From the NCBI GenBank assembly GCA_012295275.1, contig CM022679.1:23746001-23810000 (forward strand): DNA of 64,000 bases, in the 5' to 3' direction. Origin of the DNA: Chrysomallon squamiferum (Eukaryota > Animalia > Mollusca). Positions 9,506 through 39,427 of this stretch are shown piece by piece. The position numbers and the translations under genes were made by a program. Position 1 is the stretch's first letter. Every line of letters begins with the position of its first letter. Below the pieces are notes generated by a model. The model worked only from the letters and a program-made list of their open reading frames with translations, did no database searches and was not told where the DNA came from.

Positions 9506-10357
9506 CAGTATACTCTCACCTATTCGCGGTTCCCCATTCGCGGCCCCGCATATTCGCGGGTTAGGCTCTTAACCCTATCGCATCGTATGCTGGTATACCA
9601 GGCTAGCGTCATAACGTCATACAAACAAATGCTCGGTAAACAGGGTTTTTTGTAGGTCATAGAGACTTAAGTGCCTGAAGAGTAGGAATAATTACCTAAA
9701 GTGCTGTAAAGCAGCAGCTAAGCTGTGCCATACTGTACATTAGTGTTATCATCATCATCGTATGGCACTGCAAATTTCATTATCATTTTATTATCATTCA
9801 TTATTGGTGACAATACAAACTATCAATTTTTTTCAATTATTATTGCAATACAGTACGTATTTTTTTCTCTAAATGCATACACTGTATGTACAGTGCATAT
9901 TTTTGTGACCGTTATTAATAATGTTTTTAATTGCATATTATTACTGAATTGTATTATTATTACCTGAACTGTGCGTACTGTATTTATCTGTCTGTTTGCC
10001 TTTAAATTTGTTCCACTTTCTGTCAATTCTAATACATATGTTGTACGCATAGAAAATGACTTTACGGTACATAATACTGTATGGGTAACTATGCTTTTGG
10101 TGTTACATTTATTTAGCCTGTTAAAGTTTCTTTCTGATTAAAATATTGTTTCAGTACAAAATTAAAATGTATTTACATTATCATTACTACATTAGTGAAA
10201 TACATAACTGCATGCAATATTACTACATTATTACTGTATTAATGAGTAAGAGTGTCTTTAGAAAGTGTTTGGGAAGCATTTAGTACCGTATATAATCTCA
10301 TAATATTCTTCTGGGTGGGTAAGAACGTGTACCCCCAACAATAGTTAGGGAATACTG
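9506..10357. mobile_element. Non-autonomous Tc1/mariner-pogo (Tigger-like) DNA transposon
   Basis: TA|cagtatactctcacctatt ... aatagttagggaatactg|TA: imperfect TIRs starting CAGT with TA target duplication. Three subterminal attcgcgg repeats at 9525-9560. No transposase ORF. Confidence 0.75.
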
Positions 10358-10470
10358 TAATAATATATTGAAATTTCATAAAGCACCCTCAAGCAAAAAC
10401 TAAATAAACCTCATCTTGATTATGTCTTTATGAACTATCTTTCTGTCCTAGATTCCTTAAGAAAGCCTGT

Positions 10471-10517
<47 letters not shown>

Positions 10518-12975
10518 CTATATTTGAATTGACAATATTCTGGAGGATATTTTAACTGGTATGCATATTTACATAAGTATATATGTATGTTTGTGTGTGT
10601 GTGTGGGGGGGTTGGTTTTGGTTTACATTTGTTTAGACATACTATTTAATTATTGTTAAAGATGGTTTACATTATTTCTGACATTAAATCATTATCTCCA
10701 GTATTATTCAAGCACTGGTTTTTTTATGTGCAATTATGAACTGTCTGTAAGCAGGACTTCGCCTAAATGCCAATAAGCAATAACTTCTCTATTTTTCAGG
10801 TGCCATTTTTTCCAAGTTTGCATAGAACCATTTCTTCCATACCCCAAGGATAAGTGCTATGATGAATGATGTAATTGCATACAGCAAATGAATATTTAAC
10901 AATATCTCAAAAGATTTTAATGTTAATATTTATTTGAGATGATGAACATTTTTGGAAAATTTATGGGAAGTAGTCTCCAGTTATTAAAAAGTGAATTACT
11001 TCACATAACAAGAACAAATTTTATTGAATAACATTTGAACTATATATATATTTATTTTTGCTACTAAGAATGTTTGCCTATTTATATATTAAATTATATT
11101 GATACATATTATTTTTGAATTTGCATATATAACAGGCTCTGACCAGCATTAAATAAAGCCAATGGCTGAAATTTTTGTTGCATGCTTAGCACAGTTAACA
11201 GATATCTTTGTCAATTTTGAAGCCACTCATTTCATCTATTCATGCTATATTTTTATCTTTTTTCTTTTCTTTCATTCTTTTTTTTTTTTTTTTTTTTTTT
11301 TGATATGATGTCCAGCATTATTTAAACAACAATAATACCATTGGGTTATCATAATTCTATGAAATGTGTACCATCACATTATGTTTCACTAGCAGGCTGT
11401 TCCCAAAAAGAAGTATCTTACAGTTCTTCAGTTCTAATAAATAAAAGTTAGCAGGACAAGCTTGTGCTCAGATCCCATAAAGTATGTTTGCTAGTACATT
11501 ATACCAAGACATTCTTTTTGTTTCTTATTCTTTCTTTCCTTTATTTATTTATTTAAATTTTATTATTATAATTTATTTTTTTTTATATTATATTGTTGTG
11601 ATTGTTGTATTAATTTTGTGTCTTGAAATAAGTACTGTTAATCAGTACAGTATGATATTCAGAAAAATTATTTATTATTGTTGTTTTTTGTTATTTTTAT
11701 TTTTTAAGGGGTTTGTTAAGTTTCACCTAGACTGAAAACAGCAGTGATAATATACAGGAGTAAAATGAAAAAGCTCACAGCGTATGCTAATATTGTATGT
11801 TTCTATAACATAAAACGATTACACTAATCCACAAATAACACATTTCCTTGAATAACAAAATAATAAATAAAAGCAACTAATAAATAATAATAATAATAAT
11901 AAATTAAATTAAATAAAAAATTATATTTGTTGTTTGCACTGTATAATTTAAGTTTAATCATAAGAACAAATAAATTTTAAAAAATACAGTTAAATGTTAT
12001 TTTGTTTTAATTTACGTATATACCTGATTTTATTTTTTTTTCTGGATCATACAAAGATGATTAATGAAGGTATGACAGTAGCATTATGTAACTAATAACA
12101 AATATTCACATAAAATAAAGAACATACAACCTGAATGAATTTTATACTGGTAATTATTACTGTTAGCATTTGTACACATCTAGTATATTACACCATTAAG
12201 TGTATTTGTTAAGACAATTAAAAACAATGTTTGGAAAACAATAAAAAAGCAATAAAAGTAATAAGTACATAATAGCTATATAATATGAAGTATATGAAAT
12301 AACATCCGTTATATACATTGTGTTATATTTGTATCTCTGATTTAGCAACAATTAAAGCAATTATTATATCTAAAGATTTTGCTGGTAGAATATGTATCTA
12401 AAATGTCATAACAATAAAGCAATAATAAATTAATTATTTTGCAGGCCTCAATACAAGTATGCTCCTAATTAATTACATGATAAAGCCTTAATATTTAAAT
12501 AAATCAGCAATTTCATCAAACAATCAGTCTAATATATAAATTTTCCAATTAATATTTGTAATAATAGTCATGCTATTAAAGCAGGCAAATTTTTCTTATA
12601 CTGACTATTTTCCCATCAAACTTCTTTCCTTTTATCTTTCAGTTGGCTCCATTTGCTTGTAATTTGTTTCCTTTCCCAAAATAAATGAGTTCTTTATTTC
12701 TCTGGTTCAGTCCAGATGGATGACATTAGCTGTATTAATATCAGTTATTAACAATTAGATTAAGTAGATTGGAACTATCATATAACACTAGGCATAACCC
12801 CCCAAAAAATACAACCTTAGTAAAATATTAGTACGTTTACTAAACAAAGAATTAATGTGAATTAATGTATTGTTCATTATACATCTAAAGGTACCCAGAC
12901 AAAACCCAACTGGACAGAACTCCACCCATCCAACTGCCAACTTAGACAAAACCTCCTCACTCCACTCAGTAACAA

Positions 12976-13012
<37 letters not shown>

Positions 13013-13842
13013 TCAACAATAACAATAAATAATAAATGAATAAATAACAAAATAAGCTTTGTTTTTATTCTTAACACAGTGTCAATCCATTTCATTAGCG
13101 TATAGTATCAAAAACCACATATTTTGTAGAAATCTATGTAGAACATGCACTTAAGTACTCCTTATCACAGAAAACTAAGACCATTTAGCATTCCAAAGAA
13201 GAGGTTAACATTTTGACTAGCTGTTTAAACATTATTTGAATATTTGTATCACATCATCATTACAGCCAACTTCTTTCCAGTTAGAGTACTCATATATTTC
13301 CTTATGTACATATTGCCATCAAATATTAGCTTTAATATCCATGCTGTAATATTCCAATTTTCTGGGGTAACAATTAAGGCTCCCATCTGCTACAGACATA
13401 CCTTTGCAGTGACATCAGTGCAAGACCCATACCAACTGACAAACAAATTTTAGGTGAAACAAATTATTTTGAAGGGTAGTCAGAGTGTTTTGTCTAGTGT
13501 TTTTATTAACGAGTGCTTTTTTCCAGTGGATTTTTCCCACGATCTACAAATGAATGCCTTAGGATAAGGTGATGATAAAATTATGGAATATATACTAGTA
13601 TATATTTGGAAAGAATCTTTGAAAATAAAGTGGGACAGTTTTATTATAACTAGAAATTCATATCTACTTTCCATATATTTAAGAAGGATCATAATATTAT
13701 CCCCGACTTATTATAAAGCTCAAGGTAATATGTTATATGTTTTAGGACAGAAAAGATATTATTTGTAAGATAAAGCACTGGTATATTATTTCACTGCATT
13801 ACATATGTTTACTAGATTTAGCAAAAATGTATTCATTATTAA

Positions 13843-16304
13843 TTAATAGCCTTCAGCAATCAGGTTTCTGATTGTTGTTTTCAGAGGATTGTAATTCTTA
13901 GCATTTCCTGCAGAAAGTTTGCCTGATTCAAATATCTGCCATCCTAAGCTGGAGCGAGACAGAGAACACATGATGACAGCTTGGCTGTTTCTGGCATGTG
14001 TGAAAGTTGTACTGCAGAGATCTTTATTCTTATTTGAAGCTTCGTAGAATTTTAGACTGGGGTTAGGATATCTTGCAATTGTTGGTGAATTCCAAGCACT
14101 GAGTGTGAAAAACAAATGTGTAACATTGGCAGGCAATTTCTTCAAGTATACGTGAATAGTGTGATGACCAATTCTTTGAATATCATTCATGACATCACCT
14201 GAATGAGTGACTGCTTTCATAATGAAATAATGTGTCTGGCTGTAATCAACAGTATAGAGGTAGTTTTGCCCATTAAAAAGAAGACAAGATGCATCTAAAT
14301 AATCACGCCTGCCGTGCATTGGGTAACCCCAGAAGAGATCAAAACCACATGGTCAAAAGCATCAGGAATGGCATACAATAAAACCACCAGATGAATTGTT
14401 TCATTAGGCTTTACACTGTAATCACTCAGTGTCATAATATGTCCACCATCTCCAAATACCTGAAATTAAATCATAATAATTATACCTTTGTTGGTCAACA
14501 TAAATTCTTTATATTTTGAAGTTATTATTTTTGGACGATGTATCATTGCTAATAACAAAGTTTGGCTATTAAATAATACTACTATTTATCCTATCAATGT
14601 GAAGTCATGATATCACATGCATGGTGAACTTGTAGGTATGTTTCTTCTGGTTTGGTGAAAAAAAACTTGCTTGAAGTAAATACAAAATCTCTAGGTTATT
14701 TATATATGTAATAATTATTTGATTTTAATATTTTGTTTTGAAACTGCACTTGTTTTAGGATATTCAAAAAAAAAAAAATACAAATGTTTATTCACAAATG
14801 TATATAAGAGAGTGTCCTTTTTAAAAAAAAAATTTAAATAAAAGAACCAAAGTACATTTACAGAGTATTATTTTGATTGTATATAATAATGGATACATGT
14901 AAACCAATATTATATTCAAATAATTCTACCTGTAGTTCTTTTTCATGATAAAGCAATTTTTGTTTTTGAACTTCATGTCCAAGTTTGGTCTTGATTTGTT
15001 CCTTCAGCTGTAATATTGTCATAGCTGGATTGAAGATAATGTTTGCACTGTCCCCAGTTAAGACTGAAACTCTTATAATATCATGAGCTGCTGAATCAGT
15101 GATACAGGGTGGTGTATACTCTGTTGTGTATTCAGTGAACATCTCTGCCAATGTTGCCTGAATGAGCTTTACTACATCACTGTTAAATGGTACAGGTTGA
15201 CCACATGAAGGATGTGGACATATTCCATTTTCTTCTGAGCTTGCTATCACACACTGAAAGAAAATGATAGTAGTAACTACCAATCTAATCTAAGCACATG
15301 GGTTTATATTTTTGTGTGTGGAAAAATTAGAGTTAAAAACTTCAACACTGATAAAAATGATTCCTTAATTAACATGTAATTCAAATAGCCATTTTATCTG
15401 CATATTTGTTTTATATTTACTTTAAATTTACCTGTCTCCAAATTGATGTCTCTTTTAAAATTCAAAGAATATTTATGATCATAAAGCAAGTTTTAACAGC
15501 CAGTAATTTTTTGTTTTATCCAGCCAATGTCTTAAACTGTTTCAAAGAGACATGCAGATTAGTTTGCAAATAATAGATGTTAATTCAAATCTTCTAAGTT
15601 CAGGTAATAATTATTTTAAAACACCAATTGCATAAACACTTCAATGAGATGTGTTTTTTCTCCATTTTTCATTGATGTATCCATAATAATTGAAAAATAT
15701 GAAATAAAAATAAAGAATGACTAGTGTACTATTAAAAACAACTTGCTGCACTGATCTCAAGATAAAAACACAAATTATACAAAAACCAGTTGCTTCCTTT
15801 TCAAGAACAAATGGATTTTTGATATAGTAATTAGCTTTGTATAAAGACAACAAGTTTTTCCTTTTGAATAATGGTGGCCATATCACCTGACTGTTAAAAC
15901 TTTCACCTGCATAAATACACATATTGCTTTGGCAATATATAACACATATCTGTAATGGCAAACCATTTTACAGAGTACATATTATGTAAGTGTGCATTAT
16001 TTGTGCCTCAGTTATGGATAAATTATAATTCAGCAGACAAAAAGTAGTCTGTGTTTCCAGCTTGATTCACTAATATATGTCACTGATGCACTGTAACTGA
16101 TATCAGATAAACACTTATCTGCTTCCATATAAGTATGGTTAAAATCATTTATATTGTAGTTTATAATTTCTGTCTGTATAACAATAAAATAAACAGAAAG
16201 CTTACCCTCATGCAGTAGAGCTGAGGATGTCTGCATTCCTTGGTGAGATCATCAGGATAAAATTCACGTCTTAGTTTATCTTGATTGCATTTTCTGCACC
16301 TCAT
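13843..16304 (-). CDS. RING finger + ubiquitin-like + TerD-domain fusion protein (~346 aa; one 1-nt frameshift)
   Basis: Exons 16304-16206 (ATG; MRCRKC...ECRHPQLYCMR), 15253-14930 (CVIA...CPHPSC...IIRVSVLTGD...TILQLKEQIKTKLGHEVQKQKLLY..ELQ), 14459-13843 (..TLSDYSVKPNETIHLVV..FDLFWGYP..DYLDASC..VTHSGD..HTIHVYLKKLPANVTHLFFTLS..AVIMCSLSR...WQI..EGY*). All junctions are phase 0 with GT-AG. One T is missing from a T run at 14341-14344. Confidence 0.85.
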
Positions 16305-18681: not shown

Positions 18682-18713
<32 letters not shown>

Positions 18714-20230: not shown

Positions 20231-20241
20231 AATTTGATTTA

Positions 20242-21089: not shown

Positions 21090-24000
21090 ATGGCTGAAGC
21101 AAGTAGTGGACAGGCATTTGGTAAGTTATGATATACAGTGGAAAAAATAATAATGATTTCACTCACAAAATCATAATCATTTTGGATCTGCTAATATTCA
21201 TTTATCATAAGATTTAGAGACTGAAAGTCCAGGTAATAAGTGAGAATGTGTAAATATTTGGTAAAGCTGGCTTTTTTTCATTTTCCAACATTAATAATCA
21301 GAAACAATAATTTAATACATATCACACATTTGTTCCTGGTGTGTGTATGAGTATATATATATATATATATAATCTTCAAGCTTTTATTAAATTTTTCTAT
21401 TATTTTTAGACTAATTTTATTTACAAATACATTTTTGTCTTTAGTTAACAGTTTGTACTGTATAATAGTCATCTAATTCAACATTAATAAAAAATGAGAT
21501 TTTATTGTTTTTTCTAATTACTGGACATTTTTTCAGAGTTTGAGATCAGTCTTGATCCATGTATTGTACATGAAGATGGCGATGAAGAAAATATAGAAGA
21601 TTATAAAGTGGTTTATGAATTAGTGAAGGAATTTCAATTTCTTAAAAATTGCTTTAGAAGTTTCAACTTCGTCAACATTGTCAGAGTTTCTCCTGATTTG
21701 AAAATTACTCTATCTGTATTGTCTTTAAAACATTTTACTGAACTTCTTAAAGAAATTAAGAATGGGAATCTGTCAAAAACAATTACAGATGTTGCAGTTA
21801 GTCAAGGAATTGAAGTAACTATTGGTGTATTTTCTCACACTAAACAGACATCTCATTTGCAACTGGCTGTATCTTTATGTGACGAAAAAAGAACAGAGAG
21901 AAAGGCCAAATCTCATTTTAAACCATCAAGGTAAGTAAGCTTAAGAACAAATAAAAATTTAACTGATTCAATTGTAAAAAAAATAAAAGAGCACAAGTTT
22001 ATGTAGATGAATGTATGTGACTAATAATTTTTTTTTTTTGTATATCTCATACATAAATATTTCAATTAAGTTATTAGTTTCCACATGAGTAGAAAAAATT
22101 GTCATATATCTGTAATTTGAATGTTTCAATTACTGATAAAAAAAAGAGTCCACTCAATGCAAAAAAAAGAAAAGAAAATCTGGTTACAAGAGGAAAAAAA
22201 GTACAGTATGCCAAAAAACAGATTAAGACCATTTACTGGTTGAGAAAAGAAAACTAACAAACTACAACTAAATAAAAAAAGCTAGTTTAGAATAAAGTGC
22301 TGTATTGCTCATTCAACAGTTTTCTTATTCAAAGTCTAATATTTTTTTTATACTGATTAACAGAATGGCTTATATAGATGTAACCATTGTTTTATATTTT
22401 ATTTGAAAATAAATTTAACCACTACCTTTGCAATTTATATGATTGTTGTTGTTTTTGTTTTTTTCTATTTATTTATTTACTATCATTATTATCATTTTTA
22501 TTTGTATCATATTATTATTATTATTATTATTATTATTTTGTTTCTGTTTGTTAAAGTGATTCTATATAATTTTTTGATAAATTTAAAAAAAATGTTTTTA
22601 TATAATTGTACTGCTGAAATTCTGTTCAAGATTTTGTATGCATAAGAAATACAGAGAATTCTGGACATATTTTTATTGCACTAGCATGTTATGAACTACT
22701 TCCAACTAGAAAACTGTAATTTCTAATCCTAAGACCATTTTAATATTAGAACAAAAAAATAATAATTATGCATAATGTATTATTTTTGGTGAAAGCTTCA
22801 GTATGTTGTTTCTACATCTTCTTGTCTTCTGCTGTCCGCTGCCAGTTTGTTCCTGTCCATTGTCTCACATATCTTCCTTTATGTTACTACCTGTTATATG
22901 TCCATCAACTGCCTTGTTTTCCTACTGATGTACCTTGCCAGTCTGTGATCTTTGTTTTCTCTCTTAACTGGATGTTTGTGTTTTGGTCTGACTTTGTTTA
23001 TGTGGCTGCTTATCTCTTCTTTGCCTCATTATTTAATGCCCATGCATCACTGCTAGAAATACACATTGTAAACTTGTCACTTCAACGATTTCCTTGAATA
23101 TGTCCTGATACTTTGCAAAAGCAGTCCAGCTAGCCTTGTTCTTTTCATTAAATTAATATTGTTTAAATTATTTTCTTCTGATTGGTAAAAAAAATTAAAA
23201 TAAAATAAAATGAATGAATGAATGAATGAATAAGTAAGTAAGTAAACAAATAAGTAAATAAATGACAAAATAAAATTAATATTTTCAATAAAATGATGCA
23301 TATTAAATTCATTAATATTTTGATATTAATATTCATCATTACTATTTTCAGCCGATATTATAATTAAAATGTATAGCTTATGAATTAGCTAATGTTGTAT
23401 ATTGTATTTCTAATTGCAAAAATATATGGATTTCACTGACATCATGACATCTTTCTAGGCCTGAAACAAAGGAAACAGCAGAATTGTCAAAAGCCAAAGA
23501 CAAAACTAGGACACAGTGCACAGCAGAATTTGTAAGTGGTATTTTTATTATTTCTTAGACAAGTACTATTATTCTGTGAGACCGCATAAAAATATTATTA
23601 TTCAGCTGCCAAAAATAAATAAACAGGAATTTAAATGGCTCATTTTTGATTTTGTTGTACTGAAACATTTCAAATAGTATCTTACTGTACTGAAGAAATA
23701 AATTGAAGATTTTTATCAACAAAGTTTGATCTCTAATTAAGTAGAAATGAACTGATAAAGAATGAAAATGTTTCACTTAAAAATAACAGTAATATTCTTA
23801 TATTTAGTTAAGGCATTTGTATTTTGGTAAACATTAAATGATAGTAATACATTTTCTTTGTTTTTTTGTTTTTCTATCAGGGTACACAATGTTTGAAGTC
23901 ATCTGAAGAAAAAACACATTCTGCTTCAACAGCAGTTATTTGTAAGCAGTTTCGTGAAGGAACAGAAGTAGATAAAAAGAATCATGACCAAGGCAATTTA

Positions 24001-27000
24001 CAAAGTGAAAGAAAAACTGATGACAAAGAGATTCAGGTATGTATTAAGTTTTATTCTGCTTGATGTGATATAAGACATAGGGAAATAATTTTCAGTGACA
24101 AGGACAGGCCACAAGTAGAACAGATTATATGATTATGATAGTATCAGTGAACATTAGGAACATATTTTCTTATTTTGTATTAAATAATCAGAGGATACAT
24201 TTAAATTTGTTTTTATTGTAAAGCTAGTTTAACTACAAATATCTCTGTTAACATAGCCAAAAAAAAGAAAGTCTATAAAAAAAATAATAACATAATAAAA
24301 TAAATGACTGAATTACCTAAATAAATTGGAAGATATGTACAAATACTATTAAAATGAATTTTTAATTTTAATTTCAATTTTTTATTTCAGTTAGTTGCCC
24401 GATATCTTTAGATAACAGTTACTAAAAATAATTAACATGATGAATGTTATGCAAAACTGGTAAAGGTTCATTATTTATAAATGATTTAACATTAACAATT
24501 GTATGAATTCTTGAAAATATGTATTAAATTTCAATCATTGTTTTGATAATACATTTTATAACCTCAACATATTTTCTTGTTTTCAGTCTTTAAGTTTTCA
24601 GATAGTTCTGCATATCCCTGTTGACAAATCTTTGCTGAATTCATATGTATATATTGAATTAAGAACTGAAAAAATCTACATAGGTTGGAAACACTTGTAT
24701 AACATTTGTGAAGAAATATGGATGAGCTCTATATTGTCTGTTCCTCCTGATACAGAAACATTGGAATATCGATGTGAATTTGACATAACCACTGGAAGAA
24801 TTTTCAAAACAGTTAAAAAATATATGGATTATAAATGGAAACAGGTAAAAATTAAACCAGTGATTCGAGACTTCTTTGTTCCTTTAGAAACAGACACAGT
24901 TGAAAAGGGAATTAGTCATCATCTTAAGCATCTGTTAACAACCTTTAACAGCAACTTTTTAAAAGATACAATAATGGATATTGATGATGTTATTATGTGT
25001 GCAAATAAATATAAGACATACAAAGCAATAAATTATAAAACAGTTGTTTTGCATACTGAAAGATACATTCTAGAAAATCAACTTGAAATACAGGAAACAT
25101 ACATTATTTTGGGTTATATCTGTGGTCTGCTGCTTGGTGGTCATGAAACAACGAAAATTTTATCAAAACAAACATGTCTAGAAATACTTAAAACTTTGAA
25201 GACACTTCCATGCACAGCTCTACCTGTAGGTTCACTGAAATATTTTGAAAATATTGCCGAAGACCTGTGCTCTAAAGCATTTCCTGATCAGCCAAGTATA
25301 GTGCAACTGTTTGAATTTTGTTATCCTGCAGTTACATCTTCTTATATGATACAAAAATGTAACAAATCCAAAAAACCTCAATTTGTGTGCAGTATGGAAA
25401 CATGTGAATCTATCTGCCATAAAATTATCAGTCAGAGAGAATCAGGAGATAAAGATGCAATGTTGCTCCTACACACCTTTTTAAAACACTCACCCATTGA
25501 TTGCAGTATTTATGCAGCACAAAACTTGGATTTGTTAAATCAGACTGAATTTGTTAACTGTTTCAGATCACGATTTGAAGATGAATGTAATGTGTATGCC
25601 AGAACTAAGAATTTTGCAGCCTTGCACAAGCTTGTTTGTGATTTATCTTCAACACATGAAGATATTGTATTGATACTCTCAGAAATATTAACAAAAACAA
25701 TGATTAGCATGGTAAAGTCATTGAATAAATCTGACACTGCTGAGTATCCTGAAATAGAGAAGTTAATGGATTGTCACATTCTTTTCAAATCAAACAAATC
25801 TTTTGACAGACTTTGTGCAGTCATGGCTGAATCAGATAACAAGTTTATACATATTTTTTTTTTGAAAATGCTTGATTCAGAACAAATGACTGATGTAAGC
25901 AGTACTTCCCTGTTCAATTATGTAAAGACATGGTTTGAGACAGCAGTCAACCATCACTGCAGTGAGAAACGATATAAAGATGTATGTGATGACCTCCCAC
26001 TGGTCTATAAGCATCTAAATAACCTGCTGAAAACAACATCAGTTTCAAGGCAGGAAATACTTATAAATGAATTGAAAGAAAAAACATTTCTATTTCTTAA
26101 AAAAATTCCACTAAATAAATTAATGCAGGGAGTTTGTGATTCAGAGATTCTTGACAATATTGAGTTAACAGATCTATTTAGTGAACATTTAATTAGGAAG
26201 TTATCAAGCTCAGATGGAAAGGAGTGTATTCTCTCCACCATTGGAACATTTTCAAAACAAAAAGCTTTTGACGCCTCAAGGTATGCTTAATATTTACTTT
26301 TTAAAAATATTTTGCAGTTATTCCACTTTTAATCTGAATAATTTTATCCTTGGTCTACATGTCTTTTAGCAACATAGATAAAAATATTTTACTTCATCAT
26401 TATTTTCAAAGATTTTATATATATTGAAAGAAAATCAAAATTGTAATAAAAAACAACAGAATTTACAAAATAACAGTTCCTATGAATTTTACTTCTGTTA
26501 CATATAAATGTTTTTATTTGCCATTGATGACCTTTTTCATTAACTAAGAATTTGGTAAAAATAATTCAATAAATTTATATTTTTATTTGAACTATCACGA
26601 AATAACTGCATACTGAAGTAAAATAAAATTTATAAATAAAATACATTTCAATGCTTTTATTATTTATTTGATCAGCACATCACGTATAATGAATATATGT
26701 GACACCAGTTTTATATGCCCAGGCACTGATAATGCAACATTCTTGGTTTCACTGAAATCAATTGGTTTCAAAGTTTTTCAAAATTCATTTTGTTAGTTAT
26801 TGAAGACATTTGGAACTGAAAGGGCAAATATGAATTTTCATCACTGAGGTGATGATTATTATTATTCAATAAATTTAATATTGACAAATGTCAGTGAGAC
26901 TGTCTGGTATCACAGATAACATAAGACTGAATTGCTGGCCTGATATCCATCAGGCTTGCTTGTTGCTGTTAACATTTTGTGATTCCACTTGGCTGCTTCA

Positions 27001-30000
27001 AACGGTTAGGTATTTCCTGAAACACTAGGTATAGCTGGTTATACTAGAAAATGTTGCAACACAATCTCAGTGGTCATTTGTGAAGAATAATACTGTCAAT
27101 TTACATGGCTTATTTATTCATAAATGCCACACAAAAATATAAACCAATTAAATATCTTTAGCAAAAGGCTAGATGTAAAATGTGAATTTACATTAATTAT
27201 TTGAAAATGAAAACAAATAAGATAAAAAATATTACAAATGTAGACAAATGTACAAAAAATGCTCATTTTATTCAAGTTAGGAAAATATTATACATACACT
27301 GCTTTTTTCTTATTTTCCCAGATCTTTGACTAAATTGCTGATTGTTGCCATTGAGGTTTCTGGATTGACTGATGCAAGTTCAGATTTGGATAGATTGAAA
27401 CTTATGCTAAAAAATGTGGATTTTTGGATAAAATTAATGAATGTGCACGGAATACATTCTTATCAAGTAAAGAAACACACAGGTTTTGTCACAGCGCAGA
27501 AATGTCTTGTTTCTATTTCAGAGCAGTTAATCTCCCAGAGGCTGAAATGCAATGAAGTAGAACAATTGAAAGCATTTGAAAATGAAAATGGCAAATGTAT
27601 TGTTCACCTATTGAATGTATGTCCAGCCTACCAGGGAAAAGATATCGATAAAGCATGGAATCTGGTAACAGAAAAAATAGTGAACTTTAGAAAACTTCTT
27701 GATGTTTCTTTTGCAATTTTGCAGAAACTAAAGAGAGGTATTGAAAAAGATTTTCTTCCAAATATTCCACGTTTCAATAACGCAGTGGTATATTTTGAAA
27801 AGAAAAAAGAACATTTTGTAAATGGTGGTGTCTGCTTGTATGAACTAGATGATGGTTCTTTTGTTTCACCTTTAATATATACACTTTTCAGTCTGCAAAT
27901 GAGTCAAATGTTAGATTCTGAAGTCTTTTTGACTCTCAGTGGACACATTGTTGAAACAGTAATAAACAATCCTATTGAGGATTTGGAATCAGAATGCATA
28001 GAAGAATCTATTTCCCAAATGTTTGGTGAAGAAGATCCTGAGATAATAAAGTTACCAGCTGTAGTTCTTTCCATTCTGAAAAAGTTGGAAGATGAAGGTA
28101 TTGATAAGTATAAAGCTGCATGGAATCCTGTGTTCATGGAAGAAGCTGAAGATATTTCTGAAATTAAAATCATTGTTGAAGTATCTGATCTGGAATCTGA
28201 GATTCATTTGCTGAAAAAATCGTAAAGAAAAGTTTCCATATTGGATTTTTGATTCACTTTTGATGATTAGAGAGTACAAGAGATATGAAGAGAAAGTTCA
28301 TGCAGTCAAACAAAGTTTTGGGAATTGTTGGAATTAAAGATGAATTGGATGATGGCTTTTCTCAAGCAGTGAAATCATTTTATGCTCTGAAAAACAGTAA
28401 TCCTGAAGGAATTACATTGAAACAACTGCATGCAGCAAAATGTCAGTTTTCTCTGATTGATGAAATCATTGATGATGACTTTTTGGATATTTTGAAACAA
28501 CTGAGTAAAGCATCATCTTTGGTTGAGTTTCTTTTTGAAACTGCAGAAGATGATTTACGCCAGTTAATAGATTCAGTGGAAGAACATTCAGAACAATTTA
28601 TACAAGAGTCCACAATTTCTGCACTCATAGATGTCAAAAGATTTTTGAATTCTATTTTGAAGAACAAGATGCAGTTCGATAAAATAGAAGTATTTTTAAA
28701 GACTTTGGAAAAGGCTGCTTCTGCAAATGACAAGACAACTCTAGCAGGCAAAATAAATATTCATGGGTTGAAATCACTTTACAAATCTGTATCCAATCGA
28801 GGTGAACTGACCAAAGACATTGTAACCAAAGCAGTCAAATCAGGATCAAAATTTATTATTTCACTGAAAGAAAATGGTTGCTGTGAATTTTCTTTACAAT
28901 GCAAATCTCATGGTCAGAAAGAGGTGTACTCCCAGTCTGATCTTGATGATTTGCGAAGTCGAGCACTTTTACTTGTCAACACAGAAACTAAAAGAAAACA
29001 AGGAGGAAAACACAAAGCAAAACTTCAGGCAGACTTGAAATTGTTTATAGATGCCTTGGACAGTGTCATCTGCATAGCAGGATGCTTTGTAAAACTTGCT
29101 CAGGCTGGTCATCCTGATTATGTCTCCAAAAGCAAAAGCATTCACATTACAATAGAAGATTTGAAAGACAAAATAAAATGTCTTGAACAACATTTTGAGG
29201 AGTGGATGGAGATACTGAATGAAAATCGTGAACATTATTTTTGGTTGAACTGGTTTTTTCCTGAGCAACTTTTAAAAATTAGAGACTATTTGGAAAATGG
29301 TACCAATGACACCTACATTGCAACACTTTTTGAATATGGAGGCTTTAATGTAGAATTTCTTAGCAAAGGAAGAGACATCTTTAATGAAATAACTGACAAT
29401 GAAAACAGTCATTCATTTTCACTGCCTTTGGTTGGACAAACACTTGATATTGCATTAAAAAATACATTGTTTCAGCCAAAGCATTTTCCTAAAGAAAAGA
29501 ATGACTCAAAAACTACACATATGATACAGAAAGGTCAACTTTTTGTTGCTGCCATAGATGAAAACAGCAAGCTGGTTATTCCAACTATTTTGGCAATATA
29601 TAAAAACACAACAGGATTCCTTCCCATGCCACATCAAATTCTGTTTTGTAATTCAGATACAAAATGGGAATGTATTTTTCTTCTTTTACAAAGATGCATC
29701 CGATCAGATGGTCCTGTCTTTGGAAAACAGCTGTATTGCATTGTTGGTGTTGAAAAACTATCAAATGAAGTACAGTTTAAGCTTGTTGATGAATTAGATG
29801 AAATGCTGCAAAAACCATTTCCATATCTAGCTATAATCTGTCAAGGTGGCACACATCACCCATTTATTGATCACTTTGATACATATGTGCATCATATTCA
29901 ACCAATGACAAATAATGCCATTGAAAAATGTTTCAGAACGTTATGGCCTATGGTTGTAACAATTACATCAGATGTTTCAGGTCAAGGTAAAACAGAACTT

Positions 30001-33000
30001 GTTTATGATATGGCAGCTGAGCATGACAAGGGGATACGTACTATTCATATTAGTGGAGATATCAATATTAAATCTTTGAAAGAAAGAATGTCTCAACTAA
30101 ATCTGTTACCTCATCATGTTCTCCATATTGATATAGGGACGGTTTCAAAACCTAATGAATTGGATCTGCTTTTGTTTCAGCTAATAATTTTGGGATTTCT
30201 TGTTGATGGACCATCCCTTTTTCAGTTACCAACTCAATACATATCAATTGAGGTAGCTAATTCAATTAACAATGTCCTTCGAAATTCATTGCAAACAGTT
30301 ATGTTTTTCAACCGTAAAATTACGCAATCTTCCTGAATGCTGGCTATGCTTTTCGCTACAAGGTGACAAATTGAAAATAACAATGTAAAATCAGCATTGA
30401 TTTTCAGCATCAAATCTTCTGGCTATGCACAAAGAAAATAACAATGTAAAATCAGCATTGATGCGTGCACTTATTGACTTTTCAACAGAATTTTCTACAA
30501 GATCTGTTCAAGCCTACAGAGAAGAACAAACTGCTAATGTTTCACAGATATTGGATGCAAGTATGTGCAGTGAATCTTCATTTTCAGTTTCTACATCAGC
30601 AGTATCAATGACCAAAAGAGTTGAAAATATGATTCAATGGAGAGAAAGTAATCATCTTATCGTGGCATTTCATAATTCAGATATACAGACATTATCTGCT
30701 CTTTACAGAGAGAGATTTCTTGTGCCAAAACACATCAAAGATCTTTTTGAAACACAAGTCAAGAAAAAATTGCCTGATTTTCAAAGTCTTGATCAAAAAC
30801 AGCTACAAGAAATACTCCAGAGAATTGCTCGATCTGCAGCTGGGGATATTCCAAAAGAAACTCTACTTAAACTTTGACATGATTATGCCCTAACACCAGA
30901 CAATCTTTTGAAAATGATTCTTATCATTCTCAGAATAAAAGCTCATGTTCCTGTTATTATCATGGGTGAAACTGGTTGTGGAAAAACTAGTTTGATTCGC
31001 TATCTTGCAGTAATCTGTGATGTGAAGCTGGAAGTGCAAAACATACATGCAGGTACAGATGAATCAACTATTACCAAAAGGGTTATGGATGCAAATGAAA
31101 AAGCTAAAGCAAACTTACATGAGCCAGTATGGGTGTTCCTTGATGAGATAAATACTTGTAATCATTTAGGATTGATCAACAACATAGTTTGCCATCATAT
31201 TTGTCAAGATACGGCACTGGCACCAAATCTTGTACTTATGGCTGCATGCAATCCATATAAACTGCGAAATGAAGCTTCTGTTCTGACTGCTGGTTTAACA
31301 ACAAAAATAAAAACTGATGAACAGTCTAAGCTCGTATACAGAGTAAACCCACTTCCAGAAACAATGGTTGATTTTGTTTGGGACTATGGAAGCTTGTCTG
31401 ATGAAGATGAAAAGGTCTATATCCAGAGAATGGTAGATGGTATTGTGCAAGACCATTTAGTTAAGTTGTTGGTGGAACTGCTTGTAATGTCACAAAATTT
31501 CACGAAAAAAACAATGCAGAATGAATCCTGTGTTAGTCTTCGAGATGTTAGTCGATGCAAGAGGCTAATTGTTTGGTTCAAATCTACACTGAAAACTAAA
31601 TATCCAAGAACTTACCAATAACCAGTGTGAAATAAAATCAGTAATTTTATCCCTAGCTCATTCTTACCATTCTCGTTTGGCTAAAAATACAGAAAGATGT
31701 CAATACAGAAAGGATATGTTGAACCTATTCATGAGTCATAAAATAACAGGATTTACCTCAGAAAAGGACATTCTTGATGCCATCCTCTTAGAGCAAAAGG
31801 ACATATTGAACAGAATGGAACTTCCAGAAGGAACAGCAAGAAATATTGCATTACAAGAGAATGTTTTTGTCATATTGGTATGTATTTTGAATCATATTCC
31901 AATATTTGTTATTGGCAAACCAGGTTGTAGCAAATCACTGTCACTGCAGTTGATCAAAAATAATTTGAGAGGTAAAGATTCACATGATGAATATTTCAAA
32001 ACTCTTCCTCAGCTCTACTGTATATCATATCAGGGTTCAGAGTCATCAACATCAGATGGTCTTGTTAAGGTCTTTGATAAAGCCAAACGATACAGAAAGC
32101 ACAATAAAGAAGATGATGTCCTGCCAGTTGTCGTTCTTGATGAAATTGGTCTTGCAGAGGTTTCAAGGTTCAATCCTCTTAAAGTTTTGCACAGTTTACT
32201 TGAGCCAGGTGATAAAGAAGTACCAGATATTGCTGTTGTTGGTATTTCTAACTGGGCTCTTGATGCAGCAAAAATGAATCGAGCTATTCATCTGTCTAGG
32301 CCAGACATGGATGTTGATGAGCTTTACTTAACTGGAGTGTCAATCAGTGAGGCATCCATAAAAGCAGAGCATAAAATTTCGACTTCATTATTTAGTCCAG
32401 AAAAAGTACTTCAAGATAATTTTCAAAATATAGACCATAATCTTTTAAAAGCCATTGCAGAATCATACAAGTCTTATATATATAAACAAAGCTATCAAAA
32501 CTTTCATGGATTGCGTGATTATTATTCTTTGGTTAAGTTTGTTTCAAAGGAGTTGAGCCAGCTATCAGAAATAGACGGATATCCAGAAAGAAAAAATGAA
32601 ATCATTTTGAAAGGTCTGTTGCGCAATTTTGGTGGTCTACCTACAGAGCTGAGTTCCATTGTCAGGACTTTTAACGAACATTTTTTAAGTGCAAACATAA
32701 ACTTTAATGACTCTTTCTCAGAAAACCAGGCTTTGAATGTAATCTCATTGATCAAAGAAAACATTTGTGATCCAGGTGCAAGACATTTGTTGCTTACTGT
32801 CTGTGGTGATTCAGTTCTGAGTATAATTGAATCAATGCTGCAGAATATGAACAGAGAATATGAACTGATCATGGGCAGTCAATTTGAAGAAGATCTTACT
32901 GACGATTACAATTATAGAATTCTTAGCAGAATAATACTGTGTATGGAACAAGGTGTTGTTCTGATTTTGAAAGATCTCGACAGCATATATGGAAGCCTGT

Positions 33001-36000
33001 ATGACATGCTGAATCAAAATTACACTACTGTTGGAAAAAGAAAGAATTGCAGAATAGCACATGGTGCCTGCAGTAACCCACTGTGTCATGTTCATGATCA
33101 ATTCCGATGCATAGTTCTGGTAGAGGAAGGTAAACTGGATATGTCTGACCCACCATTTCTGAATCGATTTGAAAAACAGAATGTTAGACTTTCAGATATT
33201 CTGACTTGTGAAGAGAAACAGTTAGTCATGGAAATAGATTCTTGGCTCGAAAAGGCTACTCAAGTGGAAGATTTTCCTTTTACCAAAGTTGACTTTATAC
33301 CTATTTTCAGCCCTGACATGATATCTAGCTTGGTGCATTTTACAATGACTGTTAGTTTGGAAGGAAAGGCAGTCAGTCAGAAAGATTTATCTCTTGAGTG
33401 TAATGAAAATTCACTTAATAAATGTAAAGATACGTTGTTGCAGATGTGTTCTCCTGAAGGCATTATAAGGTTACAAAAAACCTTTCTTGGCAAAGAAAAT
33501 GAATGGGCCTGTCAAAAACTGACAGATAAATATTTTGCACTACCCTTACATGAGGGGCTAAGCTACTGTGTAAAAGACATGATTCAGAATAATTCTCATG
33601 TCAACCACAAATTGATTGTATTTACTCACAGTAATCTACACACAGATCTAGGCAGCTGCATGAAACCTCTTTCATCCAAATACCAGATTGAGAAACTTAG
33701 TTCTTTTAAATCAGAAAAACAGCTTTCAAACAGAATTGGTCACTTCTGGTTGGACTCTGATGATGAATGGTTAATTATTCAGTGTTCACATGTAGATATG
33801 GTAAATTTCTTATTGATGAAATCAATAGTTGAAAAATTCAGAAATGAATTTGAGAACACAAACAGTGAATGCAAGAAAAATGTCATTATAGTCTTACATT
33901 TAGAAAGAGAACTTGGAGATATGAATCTGGGCTTAATCAGTTTCCTATGTGGCTGGAAACTTTGTTTTGTAGACAAGCTTGAGCATTCACCAAGACCATT
34001 AACCAGTTTACTTGACAAGACCATGGAAAATTTGCTTGATGAACAAAGGCCATTGACATCATTCATATCTGAAAATCTTTTTTGGGCATTCACTTGTATT
34101 GGATACTCAAATGGTCAGCGAACAATGGACAGTTTGGTAAAAATAATTAATAAAATAAAATCTGAAGAAATTTTGTTTGCCTTTGAAAAACTGATGATGG
34201 GTTTTGTCCAAGAAAAACAGCAATCAGTTTTGATGAAACAAAATTGGCAACTAGATGTTGCATGCAGTGCTCTAAAATTGTTTAATGCTTGTACTTTTCA
34301 AAGTGCTCTTGAACAAGAAATTCACAGTTGCTTAAAACCATCGTTAGCTGCCCTTGTTTACCAAATTGAATTCTACAATGCATGGGATGTTTTGACTGTT
34401 GCAGCTGAAAAACATGATAGGCTGCAAGTATGGAACATATTTGCATTTGACAGACATGTTGTTAACATTGCTGATGTCCCAGCTCCTGCTGGACCTCAGT
34501 GTTATCTTTGTCCATTACTGATAGATTCATTACAGTATCCATTTATCTGTCACTTTTTTGAAAAAATTGCAAATTTAAAAAATTTGTTCTTGGAGAAGCT
34601 AAGATCATACAAAGCAGAATTAAAATTACTATATGATGATGATGAAGAAGATGAAGACGATGACCATCTTGGCAATATTGATTTTGATGATGAAGACCAA
34701 ATTGCAAAAGTCAAAACTGAAATGTGCAACAGATTCAAAGGAATTATCAGTGTAACTGCAAATGAACTTTTTCAGAATGAGTATACAACTTCACAGGAAG
34801 ATTATTTCTCAGATTTTTGCAGGTACATTGGTGCATCAAGGAAAATGCATATATCAGATGACAACAAACATCAAATAATAATGATGACAATGAAGCCTCT
34901 CCTCTCATCAGAAAATGGATTTCTTGAAACTGTTACAGAGATACAGGTTACATTCTGGTTATATGAATCCTATGTTATTTCTTCACTGAATTTAGTGGAT
35001 GCATGCCTTTGTGTTACAGACATTTCGTTTGAAAACATCATCAAAGAATGTTTTCCACCTAAAATTGCAGAAACTGATGTTGATGATTATCATGCCAATT
35101 CATTTCCTGACTATGTCAGTGACATCTCTGATTTTGAAGAAAAAGCAGAACTTGATTCTGATAACGTTTCAGTTGAACAGAAAATAGCTGCAGGTGAAAG
35201 TCATTCAAACAATGAACATGACATTGGTAATGGTGATGATGGTGGAAATTCTGTAAATAGCTGTGATGTAGAAGTCTCAGTTGGTAAAGAAAATGTTTCA
35301 GAAAACAGATTGGTGAATTATTGTTGCAAACAGATGATACCATCAAAACATATGGCTAACATTAAAGTTGATGAGTGGCACCAGGGTGTTAGTCTAGTTT
35401 TATCTCTTTCAAGTGAAGTATCTTTGGAGCCCAAATATCTGCAGTATCTCAGAGTCTGTAGTGACTTTGCATCATTGATTGTTATTCCATTAAATTTACC
35501 AAATCACTACCTTTTAGAACTTGGGGATACTATGATGGGAAAAGATCTGGTATCAAATGAATTTCTTAGTTATTTGTTCTCATTGCTCATTGATCTAAGA
35601 ACCAAAAAGCAAAATTCTGAAAAAGAACTCCAACATTTCCTATCATGTTATATAAGCTCTTGCCTTTCTGCTGATCCAGATTCTCAGATTTTATTCTGGG
35701 CTTTCAGGGAATTGAAGGATAATATGCTCGATGAAACCTTCAGCTTTTTTGGTCCAACTGTTCATCAGGCTTTATTCATGGAAGTTAGAAATGGTTTAGA
35801 CATTTTGAAAGATGACCAATTAGAAGACAATGAATTTGTTCATTTTCTGAATGATTTATTAGCTGAATTTGATGAATCACAGAATGGATCTTCATGTTTT
35901 GGAGCTCTTATATCAGATATTTTAATTGATTTTTTCTTGAAAAGTGCAACTCTTTTTGAAGGAGATTTGGCAAATGACACTGCAGTTATTAAAGAAATGC

Positions 36001-39000
36001 TGAAATGTCACAACACTTTTCTGGATGAAGATGAACAAAATTTAAAATTTTTGGTTGCTATAGCATTTCTTAAGAATGTAATGTCAAGTTTTTCAAATGT
36101 TCTAATAAGAAATGACTTTATCCCAGAACACTTCTCATCTGAAATCCAGCAGATCCTTTCTATATTTCATTTGGATGAAACTGATGAATTTCAATCAACT
36201 AGAAATGAAAAGATTAAAACCATGCAAATGATGTTGTTACGTTTTCTTGTGAAAGGAGATGGATTAAAAGGGTTTGATGTTATTAAACAGTCAGTAACTA
36301 CAAAGATTGAATTCCTACAAGAAATAGAAGTTGATACAGAACAGAGGTTACTATCATATGAACAAAATCCCTGTGGATTACATGCTGAAGAAGAAAAGAA
36401 TGCATTTTTCTCTGTGAAAACTAAACCTGAATTGATGAATTCTTTGATAAAATCTGCAACTAAAAATGCCAAGCTGATGATGAGGATATATTCTTTTGTA
36501 ATTCAGCAGTTGTATTTAGTCCAAGCTTTTCGTCCCATTACTGACACAGAAAGATCTTTATCAGAGTCTTTTATAAACTGTGCTAAAGAAAGTTCTATGT
36601 TACCCATGCAGATTAATCTTCTTGAAAGACTATGTTTGAGAAAAGATTTTCTACATCCTCTTTTACAAATCAGTTCATTAACAGACAGCCAGAGTTTCAG
36701 CATGGTGTCTGTTCTAGTTCATCTGTTCAGTATTATTATTGCAAATGTACAAGAAGAAAAAACTAATTCTAAAAGATCATTATTCAGCAGTTGTCTGCTA
36801 AAACTAAATCAAGTTGATTCCAAACATCTTTTTGCATTCTATGATTCAGAAGGAAAAATGAATGGTGTTGTTTCACACATTGGTAACTGTGTAAAAATTT
36901 TCAACTGCTCTTGTGGATTTATAACAGCATCATGTGCCAGTGAGGAATTAGACAAATGTTTGGTTTGTAAGACAGACAGTACGAAAAATGAAATACATTT
37001 TACTGCAGGGCAACGGTATTCAAACTTAGAAAATGATTTTAAGAATCATCTAATATCAGTGAGAAAACTTTCACCTCTTTCTTTCCAGATTTTAAATTTT
37101 CTACTGTATGGATGTGTCATTGGTTCATTTGCACTGGAAATCACTCCTCCAAAAGATCTGACTGATCTGTTAAAATTATCTGACAGTGCTGACATTGTTA
37201 GTCATCTAAATGAACATTTAGAAATACATTGGGAAGCTCTAAAGACACTAACATCATTTGGAAATGCTCAACTCTGCAAATTCTTGCATTTCATACTAGA
37301 AGACCAGCAAGAGTTATTTTTGAACGGTTTGTCACAATTTTGGAATGACAAAGAAAGAGAAGAATTTGAAAATACATTTGATCAATATGTAGTAAGTCTA
37401 GCCACAAGCAGGTTTGAAATAATCCAGAGAAAGATCATCTTCCATTCCAAAACAGTTAATGGTAATTTTGTTGTTAAATTTGAGAAAGCACTGGAGGACA
37501 TTTGTGATGATAAAAATTCAAAAATTCTTGCAAGGCTGTTTAGAACAACAGTTCCTCCAAGTTTCAACCATATGCAGGCAGAATTTTTAAATAGCAAGAT
37601 GAGATTGATGTACCCATTCCTAGCATTAGTCTTTGAAAAGAAGCTTCAGCTTGATTTACTCTCTCATTTACTGTCATGTGTTCAGTGGCACTTATGCACA
37701 GTAAAATATATCAGTCATAGAATAAAACGGGCTAACAGTGTTAAAACAACATTAGCAACATTTATTTATAATTCTATGATAGATGAAGATGAAGATAACA
37801 AAAAGGTACTGAAAAAAGCTTATGAAGATTTTACAAAATCCTGGAACCGATTAAGAGAATACCTCCCAATTCTTCAAAAATACAATCCTGACATTGTCCA
37901 AATGGAAAGGATAAACAAAGAAAGCAGTCTTTCTGAAACACTTGTAATGGATGACACATCACCAATGTATTTGGTGATGAAAGCTCTTCAAAACATGCAT
38001 AATGAGTTTCTTGAAGAAGCTGTTGTAATCACATTAAGCACTAGATGCTATTCCACTAATTTTCTGAAGAGAAGTAAGACTTGTTCAGTTCTTGCAAGTG
38101 TCAACCTGGAGGACATAAGTGAAAAGGAAATGATTTCTAATCCTTTTGATGAAGATTTGTTAAAGTTTTCTCAGTGTAATCCAAACCCTGGTTGTGGACT
38201 TCAAAGAGAATATGACTTCTATCAGATTGAAATGCAAGTTGCAGATAAATGTCTGATAAATAAGCCATACATAAAGATCCAGACAAACTTTCCTCAAGTG
38301 ATCTTTTCTGGTGAAATGCTTCGAATGTCAAAAACTTTATTTAATGAATTACGTAACACTGTTCATCAAAAACCTCTTGACAAGGAATTAGAAAAATTAG
38401 TTATTCACCTGAAGGAAACCAATCCCAGCAATTTGCAAGGGCTTTTGAATTATTTGGAGATGGCTTTCAGTTTACTAACAAGAAATCCTTTACAAAGACA
38501 TGATGTTGATCAGAATTTAACTGAACTGCTTCAGCAGTGGCAGTCACTGATATCAGTACAAATTCCTGCTGTCTCAGTATTTTGTTCCAAGGTGCCCCTG
38601 TGTTGCATTATTGCATTATATGAATTTGTTGAAGTTTTGATGGCAGATGTCATCATTGATTCATTAGAAGAAAAGTACACCAAGCCAATTCCAGAGGAAT
38701 GTGTTGATAATCTTGTTGCTGTCAAAAATTCTGCATCTATTCAGCTGATAGAAACATTTTTATATGCTCTGAAAAGATTTGCTTTCAGATACTTGTCTGC
38801 ATCCAGTATAGATCCCAGTGATAAGTTGTCACCTTATCTTATGGATGCAACCCTGTGGCCTACAGGTGTAGTTCAAAAGGTTTCTGCTGGTTCATCAAAA
38901 GCTGACACAGGAATACTCTCACCACTTTTAGCAGTAGAACATACTATGTCAACTATCTTGTTCTTTGAAGATGCCTTGAAGGTTAGTAAATACCATGGAT

Positions 39001-39427
39001 GACATTTAATGTTGATTTTTCATACAGTTTCTTTCATTTTTTTATTTTTTTTTAATCTTAATTTCAAGACAACTTGTCACCACATTTAATTTTGCTAGCC
39101 AGAGAAACTACCTTTAAAAACTGAATCTGTTTAAATTTAATTATTATAATTTGTATTTCTCATAATACATCTATATCTGTGAGTATTGTTTTGAGTAGAT
39201 TGTGCTTTTGGTGTGTATAATGTGTAAATGTTTTATTTTAACAAATATATATAAAGTGTGAAACTTCAGTTAATATAATTGAAATTAATATTATTATTTA
39301 TATTTTTTCATCATTACAGGAAAAGAAAAGAAAGATCGATAAAGCAAGTGGTAGGCTCTCACTGCACACTGAAAACCAAGGCAAAAACAAGAAACACAAA
39401 GCAGCAAGACTTTTCAGAAAAAAATAA
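21090..39427 (+). CDS. RNF213: RNF213/mysterin-like giant AAA+ ATPase / E3 ubiquitin ligase (~4,700 codons; several frame disruptions at 28.2-31.6 kb)
   Basis: Phase-consistent GT-AG exons 21090-21120, 21537-21930, 23459-23531, 23881-24036, 24587-26280, 27322-38981, 39320-39427. RNF213-family motifs: LDDLRSRALL, SDVSGQGKT (29968-29994), YALTPDNLLKM, GETGCGKT (30965-30988) with VFLDEIN, LVYRVNPLP, VSLRDV, GKPGCSKS (31914-31937) with VVVLDEIGLAE, ISNWALDAAKMNR, FHGLRDYYSLVK, LYDMLNQNY, PFLNRFEKQ. It is RNF213-like; orthology versus paralogy is unresolved. Confidence 0.93.
22790..23140 (-). mobile_element. Decayed LINE (RTE-like) 3' fragment in an intron
   Basis: Minus strand reads ...caatggacaggaacaaactggcagcggacagcagaagacaagaagatgtaga (W-x3-A-E-D-K), resembling the RTE ORF C-terminal W...A.DR..W motif. 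Broken by stops. Confidence 0.45.

Follow-up and report, generated by a model that had tools for sequence, protein, structure and literature searches.

A stretch of 64,000 nucleotides from the genome of Chrysomallon squamiferum (hereafter the window) carries a gene that is real, spliced and expressed, and whose product joins a RING-type finger, a ubiquitin-like domain (Ubl) and a TerD domain. The gene represents an ancient, apparently undescribed family, which is itself real, and it is probable that it forms a two-gene module with a giant RNF213-like gene lying beside it. Since the gene adjoins such a giant both in the window and in a coral-like contig, its product may well be a variable sensor in intracellular ubiquitin-based defence. 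The preferred reading, to which a probability of about 0.45 is assigned, is that the family protein acts as a sensor or adaptor for the RING-less RNF213-like protein in such a defence. New here are the replacement of two TerD calcium ligands (D88 and E89) by His-His, a RING that has neither the linchpin Arg nor a conserved Ile, at least three haplotypes of the TerD domain, and a RING-less RNF213-like giant adjoining a family gene.

Gene structure and expression

The gene comprises three exons on the minus strand (16304-16206, 15253-14930 and 14459-13843), and both of its introns are GT-AG and in phase 0. Its features are as follows.

16206..16304, minus strand: exon 1, codons 1-33, with the RING-type finger ligands C3, C6, C24, H26 and C31
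within 16206..16304, minus strand: exon 1 motif, the conserved K10-L11-x2-E14-F15
15254..16205, minus strand: intron 1, GT-AG, phase 0, at a position common to coral-like, mollusc-like and fungal-like loci
14930..15253, minus strand: exon 2, codons 34-141 (108 codons), with C34 and C45-x4-C50
14930..15253, minus strand: remainder of exon 2, with the post-RING helix, a flexible linker and the first two thirds of the Ubl
14460..14929, minus strand: intron 2, GT-AG, phase 0, inside the Ubl, at a position common to fungal-like loci
13843..14459, minus strand: exon 3, codons 142-346 and the stop, with the end of the Ubl (without GG) and then TerD
about 14357-13846, minus strand: TerD domain, with conserved W185, D194, D197, D213, H227, D230 and G239-H240-H241
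14340..14341, no strand assigned: missing base, in a run of A on the plus strand where the window assembly is one base short
14091..14352, minus strand: variable first half of TerD, with at least three haplotypes that differ by substitutions and indels

Expression and splicing are seen in RNA contigs from runs that belong to one single study. Exon 1 is joined to exon 2 in contigs X7 and X9; intron 1 is skipped in X9, and both introns are skipped in X7, which joins all three exons in the way that an earlier note, made from the letters of the sequence, had proposed.

The window lacks one A after position 14340, and the uncorrected frame stops at codon 196, while the corrected frame encodes 346 residues. 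The extra A is present in all seven of the different runs compared, out of 11 public runs listed. The apparent frameshift is therefore an assembly error; a pseudogene and a programmed frameshift are both ruled out, and the corrected length given by the earlier note is upheld.

The product is wholly covered by its three domains. Pfam recognises the ubiquitin domain (E 3.3e-7, 30.4 bits, cut-off 25.4) and TerD (PF02342; E 2.4e-6, 27.6 bits, curated cut-off 25.3), and exon 1 alone has no Pfam match. The order RING, Ubl, TerD, already recognised in the first reading of the sequence, is found again in Pfam, in the structural models and in the relatives, and the spacing of C3, C6, C24, H26, C31, C34, C45 and C50 is exact in the corrected product. 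The same reading had seen neither an IBR nor a RING2, and a chain filled by RING, Ubl and TerD bears this out. An RBR ligase is ruled out, as there is no IBR and no RING2.

The three domains

Conservation was counted in 103 relatives, a mollusc-heavy set, and in 38 more divergent members. Each of the eight zinc ligands is kept in 96-103 of the 103 relatives, and the motif K10-L11-x2-E14-F15 in 93-100 of them. A model of the finger alone is RING-like and confident (pLDDT 93.6), and a profile of the finger has 53 matches, including RING2-BMI1 (E 2.4e-4), RNF4 (2.7e-4) and BRCA1 (1.2e-3), with no RBR ligase among them. The eight ligands, the C3HC4 order and the RING fold are all present, though the structural and profile matches are weak. 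With the RING-HC E3s that are its best profile matches (RNF4, BRCA1, RING1B/BMI1 and PCGF5; E 2.4e-4 to 1.2e-3), the family finger shares the C3HC4 set, a central helix, the Pro after ligand 7 (74 of the 103 relatives) and the helix that follows. It differs from them in its H-x4-C spacing, long first loop and KLxxEF motif, in its unconserved Ile site, in the absence of a linchpin Arg and, in the window, in its C-x4-C.

The C-x4-C spacing had been taken earlier to recall RING1 of RBR ligases, and structure backs this likeness weakly. Like RING1 of HHARI/ARIH1, ARIH2, HOIL-1L, RNF144 and RNF216, the window's finger appears to have an extended zinc loop II and has no linchpin, and RBR ligases are frequent among its top structural rows, at E 0.085 or worse and Z below 5. 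Foldseek on the finger model lists RBR ligases in the top rows (E 0.085-0.32, weak), and VIA gives IRF2BP2 (Z 4.9), HOIL-1L (4.5) and ARIH2 (4.3), all tied, with RBR RING1 domains (Z 3.8-4.5) tied with ordinary RINGs. All ESM Atlas rows for the RING scored below 0.8. The profile prefers ordinary RING-HC fingers, the family has neither IBR nor RING2, and C-x4-C is limited by lineage: among the 103 relatives, 61 have x4, 31 x2 and one x1, with ten unparsed, and among the 38 divergent members nine have C-x4-C and 22 x2, with seven unparsed. The long zinc loop is missing from most non-mollusc members.

Canonical RINGs, as described in passages of PMC5462532, have C-x2-C and mostly a linchpin. The canonical C7-x2-C8 loop with its linchpin is absent from the window, where a Gly follows C-x4-C, and the linchpin Arg is found in none of the 103 relatives and in two of the 38 divergent members. 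The RING has no Trp at the helix site. The site of the E2-contact Ile, between ligands 1 and 2, is Lys in the window; Ile itself occupies it in 11 of the 103 and none of the 38, and any of I, L, V, M or F in 55 of the 103 and six of the 38. The finger has a RING fold with a non-standard surface, and any E3 activity is putative.

The absence of the linchpin Arg and of a conserved E2-contact Ile makes a stand-alone RING E3 doubtful. The earlier note had inferred an E3 whose TerD recognises a substrate or ligand, which is plausible. Such a ligase, in which TerD would pick the substrate or ligand and the Ubl would aid the E2 or delivery to the proteasome, could point to its well-kept zinc ligands, its confident finger model, its profile matches to the active E3s RNF4 and BRCA1 and its Pro after ligand 7, and to the statement in the same passages that the linchpin occurs in only over half of canonical RINGs. 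It would have to work without a RING2 of its own and with a C-x4-C loop which, in HHARI, is described there as disfavouring direct transfer, RING1 loops of up to four residues holding E2~ubiquitin open; it would also leave the neighbouring giant unexplained. On balance, it is somewhat unlikely.

The hydrophobic patch of the Ubl is kept: the L8 site is Leu in 94 of the 103 relatives, the I44 site is L, I, M or V in 99, and the V70 site is hydrophobic in 97. A C-terminal di-glycine, which the earlier note had found missing after the Ubl, occurs in none of the 103, and the Ubl is an integral domain, not a modifier of the conjugated type. The UBL of UHRF1 is among its best structural matches (Z 13.5, tied with ubiquitin). 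UHRF1-type ligases resemble the family protein in carrying an integral UBL, a RING and a recognition domain in one chain, but the family has another domain order, another reader domain and no sign of a chromatin function, and the likeness is a lead on mechanism only.

That the C-terminal domain has the TerD fold, as first proposed from the sequence, follows from the Pfam match above its cut-off and from a model of the Haliotis homologue P0001 (pLDDT 92.2; 210 of 346 residues identical to the window protein). This model aligns with 2QZ7 at Z 18.2 (rmsd 2.4 A over 158 residues) and with 2KXT at Z 15.2, and Foldseek matches it to 3IBZ at E 1.2e-10. The family shares with bacterial TerD (PF02342; 2QZ7, 2KXT, 3IBZ, 2QNG) the same beta-sandwich and the equivalents of W29, D42, H75 and D78. 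It differs from it in its sequence (14-21% identity), its fusion to a RING and a Ubl, its Tyr/Phe at D40 and its G-H-H, and no prokaryotic member of the family is confirmed among the genome-contig matches.

Bacterial TerD binds two calcium ions, and in the Klebsiella protein the sites are residues 40, 41, 42, 78, 79 and 89, and 29, 82, 84 and 88, according to excerpts of PMC8779313. These sites were mapped onto the family by residue count on a profile alignment to 2KXT. D42 is kept in 101 and D78 in 102 of the 103 relatives, D40 is replaced by Tyr or Phe in 101, and D87-D88-E89 reads G-H-H in 103, 101 and 99 of them, respectively. The divergent set has the first His in 19 and the second in 31 of 38 members; among 171 proteins with RING and TerD, GDDE occurs in none and HH in 125. 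The ligands of the two calcium sites are thus incomplete in the family, D40, D88 and E89 being replaced. The sites have been remodelled, with two of the ligands now His-His, and a softer metal or an organic ligand may take the place of calcium.

Such a site could also be read as that of a metal or stress sensor in protein turnover and not in infection, with a His-rich TerD that would read a transition metal and a Ubl that would shuttle clients to the proteasome. The two calcium ions of bacterial TerD, the retention of D42 and D78 beside the His pair and the intact Ubl patch would all suit this. A fixed small ligand, however, would not favour divergent loop haplotypes or an expansion of copies, and the first His is found in only half of the divergent members, so that the proposal is quite improbable.

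Other proteins with this fold were encountered. PDB entry 7jtk_A (Chlamydomonas radial spoke), which Foldseek pairs with the TerD part of the model at E 4.4e-7, is a further eukaryotic use of the TerD fold. A related TerD domain is doubled in P0181 and combined with an EF-hand and FN3 in P0261, and the TerD domain of P0330 keeps the complete GDDE calcium motif. The fungal lectin CML1 is reported, in the parts of PMC9191617 that concern it, to resemble TerD at a Z of only about 5; this lead to a lectin role was set aside. Within the window, a weak TerD-like match at 17873-18013 (E 0.003) was taken as chance.

Distribution and variation of the family

When the TerD part was used as the query, 147 of 263 candidates proved to be relatives, and among the 120 matches listed, most are about 343 residues long with the same domain order. 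Named members come from gastropods, bivalves, a brachiopod, corals, anemones, echinoderms, amphioxus, Glomeromycota and Planoprotostelium. Lamprey, two choanoflagellates, Arcella, Andalucia and Picozoa were added when cluster representatives were searched with a profile and 20 of the matches and relatives were looked up. The architecture, at first described as that of an animal gene, is therefore not specific to animals: the fusion ranges over cnidarians, molluscs, echinoderms, amphioxus, lamprey, choanoflagellates, Glomeromycota, amoebozoans, a jakobid and Picozoa. The first description had also not mentioned the remodelled metal site, the allelic variation or the RNF213-like neighbour. Among the named family matches of these word-limited searches there is no jawed vertebrate, arthropod or nematode. 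The family RING and TerD occur together in 171 of the 334 proteins fetched, and TerD has a Pfam match, at E up to 0.1, in all 103 relatives. A search for the family RING type in proteins longer than 617 residues gave one candidate and no match. Five mollusc-branch paralogues (P0100, P0103, P0105, P0106 and P0123) have a vWA domain ahead of RING-Ubl-TerD, and the C-terminal ends of P0153 and P0195 resemble the start of a vWA domain.

The introns of the gene are widely shared. Exon 1 has 25 matches in 77 related metagenome loci. In 16 of them GT comes after the codon where it does in the window, the other nine continuing directly into the next Cys, as in spliced transcripts, and the position of intron 2 is found in 28 of 37 matches. 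Both introns are present in the soil loci L069 and L072, which are nearest to Glomeromycota proteins. In a tree of 41 rows, Gigantopelta and Haliotis share a group with the window protein (99/98). Molluscs, cnidarians and fungi form one group each there, and the animal rows form one branch (100/98). In a tree of 21 rows, whose long branches leave the deep order unsettled, support for the animal branch is 93/92, and the data reject neither a holozoan nor an opisthokont grouping (p-AU 0.083 for each).

The sharing of both introns with fungal-like loci argues against recent bacterial transfer, and together with the tree it rules out a recent transfer from bacteria to animals. From the same introns and trees, the fusion is likely to predate the split of animals and fungi. 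The earlier note had called for a TerD phylogeny to separate horizontal transfer from ancient inheritance; here recent transfer is opposed, and a bacterial donor is not placed. The family trees were built without bacterial TerD rows, and when a canonical TerD protein was used as the scan query, none of 63 matches was confirmed. Nor was any prokaryotic member confirmed among 24 pattern matches in genome contigs, or any viral member among five in viral contigs.

Several mollusc species have multiple family copies, and seven loci in one assembly are 57-95% identical in TerD. Variation within Chrysomallon is concentrated in the first half of this domain. Here X1 agrees with the window, and X2 and X3 have one contig each, with 36 and 33 substitutions and 13 gap letters. 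X4 has a distinct contig with 19 substitutions and 10 gap letters relative to the window, and X5 has two contigs, at depths of 43 and 33, that merge into one shared contig downstream. This pattern fits one locus with at least three haplotypes. The depth of the X1 contig is 44 at window positions 14077-14382, compared with 62-71 nearby, and the dip may hide a further haplotype that is too divergent to align at 90%.

The TerD haplotypes are up to about 10% divergent, compared with 0.3% in the intron. In X2, 36 of 343 bases differ, against 3 of 916 in a piece of intron 1 from the same run (p 5e-18); there are 2 differences in 464 bases around exon 2 and 1 in 256 in the rest of the same contig. 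RNA contig X7 has 19 differences in 567 bases of exon 3, compared with 1 in 428 in exons 1-2. The X4 haplotype, for which alone in-frame indels are shown, was rebuilt with 18 of its 19 substitutions and all gaps; it is in frame and encodes 343 residues, with 13 residue differences. Among the changed residues listed, 20 of 21 lie within 184-244 and none at the 39 near-invariant positions, and they coincide with columns that are variable between species (p 7e-6). By alignment, the variable loops would lie on either side of the former calcium sites. Positive selection was sought and not demonstrated: two haplotypes compared have a pN/pS of 0.23, with a pS of 0.11, which speaks against a simple arms race. 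These values indicate old haplotypes, such as balancing selection would maintain, and would equally suit gene conversion with an unseen paralogue as the source.

The RNF213-like neighbour and a possible defence module

A giant gene lies about 4.8 kb from the family gene, head-to-head with it.

21090..39002, plus strand: RNF213-like giant, head-to-head with the family gene; its start at 21090 is inferred from an ATG and a donor site
36906..36998, plus strand: cysteine cluster C-x-C-x6-C-x7-C-x2-C-x9-H in the C-terminal half of the giant, RZ-finger-like by eye

The AAA core of the giant matches RNF213 in three pieces (E 3.4e-70, 6.5e-42 and 4.3e-5), and so does a short stretch upstream of it. 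The core is of the dynein-like AAA+ type, with a Walker A and two Walker B-like motifs. The giant shares with RNF213 (mysterin) this core, the upstream stretch and its size; unlike RNF213, it has no RING, its C-terminal half is unmatched by sequence, and its RZ-like cluster is altered. The RING pattern is absent from all nine plus-strand ORFs of at least 100 residues in the giant region, where Pfam finds no RING either. Nor did Pfam recognise the N-terminal CBM20 domain of the RNF213 family in the pieces scanned. The C-terminal 1,700 residues have no sequence match to human RNF213, a profile of the C-terminal halves of two giants found no RNF213 in the PDB, and the cysteine cluster has no Pfam match. 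Parts of PMC11549300 describe human RNF213 as acting through an RZ cysteine, with a RING that is dispensable against bacteria, and as being under positive selection; the RZ residues given there are the comparison for the cluster at 36906-36998. The window's cluster contains a candidate catalytic Cys and His.

The coral-like contig L036 has a second giant. Its ORF of 1,995 codons is homologous to the C-terminal half of the window's giant (E 7.7e-114, 27% identity), with about 1,800 residues aligned and the same terminal donor-like site, and ends 4.0 kb downstream of the family gene, in convergent orientation. The sequenced part of this giant has no RING pattern, and the candidate Cys and His are both missing from it. 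Because an AAA core is missing from L036 and its ORF does not match RNF213 directly, the RNF213-like label derives from the window's gene. A giant was found at one of the 77 related loci, most of which are too short. Among 17 loci that were measured, the downstream sequence reaches 4.5 kb or more in four, and three of these (L012, L017 and L047) are without a giant; none of the 17 extends far enough upstream to show one in head-to-head orientation. In a giant-virus contig, L078, an ORF of 4,429 codons (870-14156, plus strand) contains a stretch that resembles the AAA part of RNF213 (E 5e-44), and the 16 kb examined include no family gene.

Four interruptions break the window's giant in the assembly: three lie near 28,250, 30,370 and 31,600, and an in-frame TGA stands at 30875. 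Given these interruptions, the giant could be a dead allele. At one of the breaks (30370-30460), a segment of about 27 bases is present in two copies, which suggests a small duplication or an assembly slip. The spacer between the head-to-head genes (17307-20466) contains non-coding segments that have been duplicated, 150-450 bp long and about 70% identical, and directly behind the giant, at 39732-42231, is a tandem array of 37 copies of a 67-bp unit. Elsewhere in the window are an exon with a Hint module (3417-3734, plus strand; Pfam E 3.7e-10), which is likely to be part of a hedgehog-type gene, an acidic ORF of 312 codons (50873-51811, minus strand) with a TEAD-interacting omega-loop motif (PF15238; E 1.8e-4, below the cut-off), and a 72-bp tandem array (57700-59110).

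RNF213-like genes are present in several copies per genome. Since this is so of both families, chance adjacency becomes likelier, and the family gene could be a real ubiquitin-system gene whose position next to the giant is a relic of ancient gene order or a coincidence, the two having no function in common. Only two loci show the adjacency, in differing orientation, and three informative loci do not. Even so, this account is rather improbable: the coral-like neighbour and the window's giant are closely homologous along about 1,800 residues, with the same aligned donor-like site, and the match between gastropod and coral spans the cnidarian-bilaterian split.

If the family protein is a sensor or adaptor for the giant, its TerD pocket, with invariant W, D and H ringed by variable loops, would bind a foreign ligand or target, perhaps via a metal softer than calcium. 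The RING-type finger would dock E2~ubiquitin or the giant, and would not by itself transfer ubiquitin directly to lysine. The hydrophobic patch of the Ubl may dock on the giant, on the backside of the E2 or on a ubiquitin receptor, and the giant would then mark the target. The adjacency, the RING-less giant, the non-standard RING, the intact Ubl patch, the TerD haplotypes, the copy number and the features described for human RNF213 count for this reading. Against it count the different orientations at the two loci, the finding of a giant at only one of 77 loci, the three loci with enough downstream sequence but no giant, the four interruptions of the window's giant, the pN/pS of 0.23, the unmatched C-terminal half, the RZ-like cluster without a Pfam match and the missing Cys and His in L036.

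A more specific form, in which the two genes encode a split ligase, is unlikely. A small polymorphic receptor with a His-remodelled TerD would here recognise microbial targets and work with the RING-less RNF213-type ATPase next door, as an ancient immune machine of eukaryotes. That its RING1-like finger would bring E2~ubiquitin to this ATPase, in an arrangement kept from amoebae and fungi to lamprey, is equally doubtful, and the same low expectation applies to the loss in the usual model animals that this form includes.

Full-text literature searches found no paper that treats RNF213 together with TerD, and searches for TerD with ubiquitin and a RING finger found no description of the RING-Ubl-TerD family. 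Six database loci of the family are named in no paper found, and no partner gene of this kind beside RNF213 appears in the literature searched. Databases label the members as uncharacterised or 'ubiquitin-like domain-containing'. A 2012 survey of Ter systems reportedly discusses eukaryotic TerD fusions, and may list this architecture. In PMC7159879 and PMC3710099, the passages on TerD deal with prokaryotic systems.

Whether RNF213 recognises unrelated pathogens directly or via upstream receptors is presented, in the relevant part of PMC11549300, as an open question. The small, soluble protein of 346 residues beside a RING-less RNF213 relative is a candidate for such a receptor in invertebrates, fungi and protists; its TerD loops vary, and it should be easy to express. 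If this is true, the finding would provide a function for a eukaryotic TerD subtype without some of the calcium ligands, and would single out a locus in molluscs and corals as a candidate for a role in immunity.
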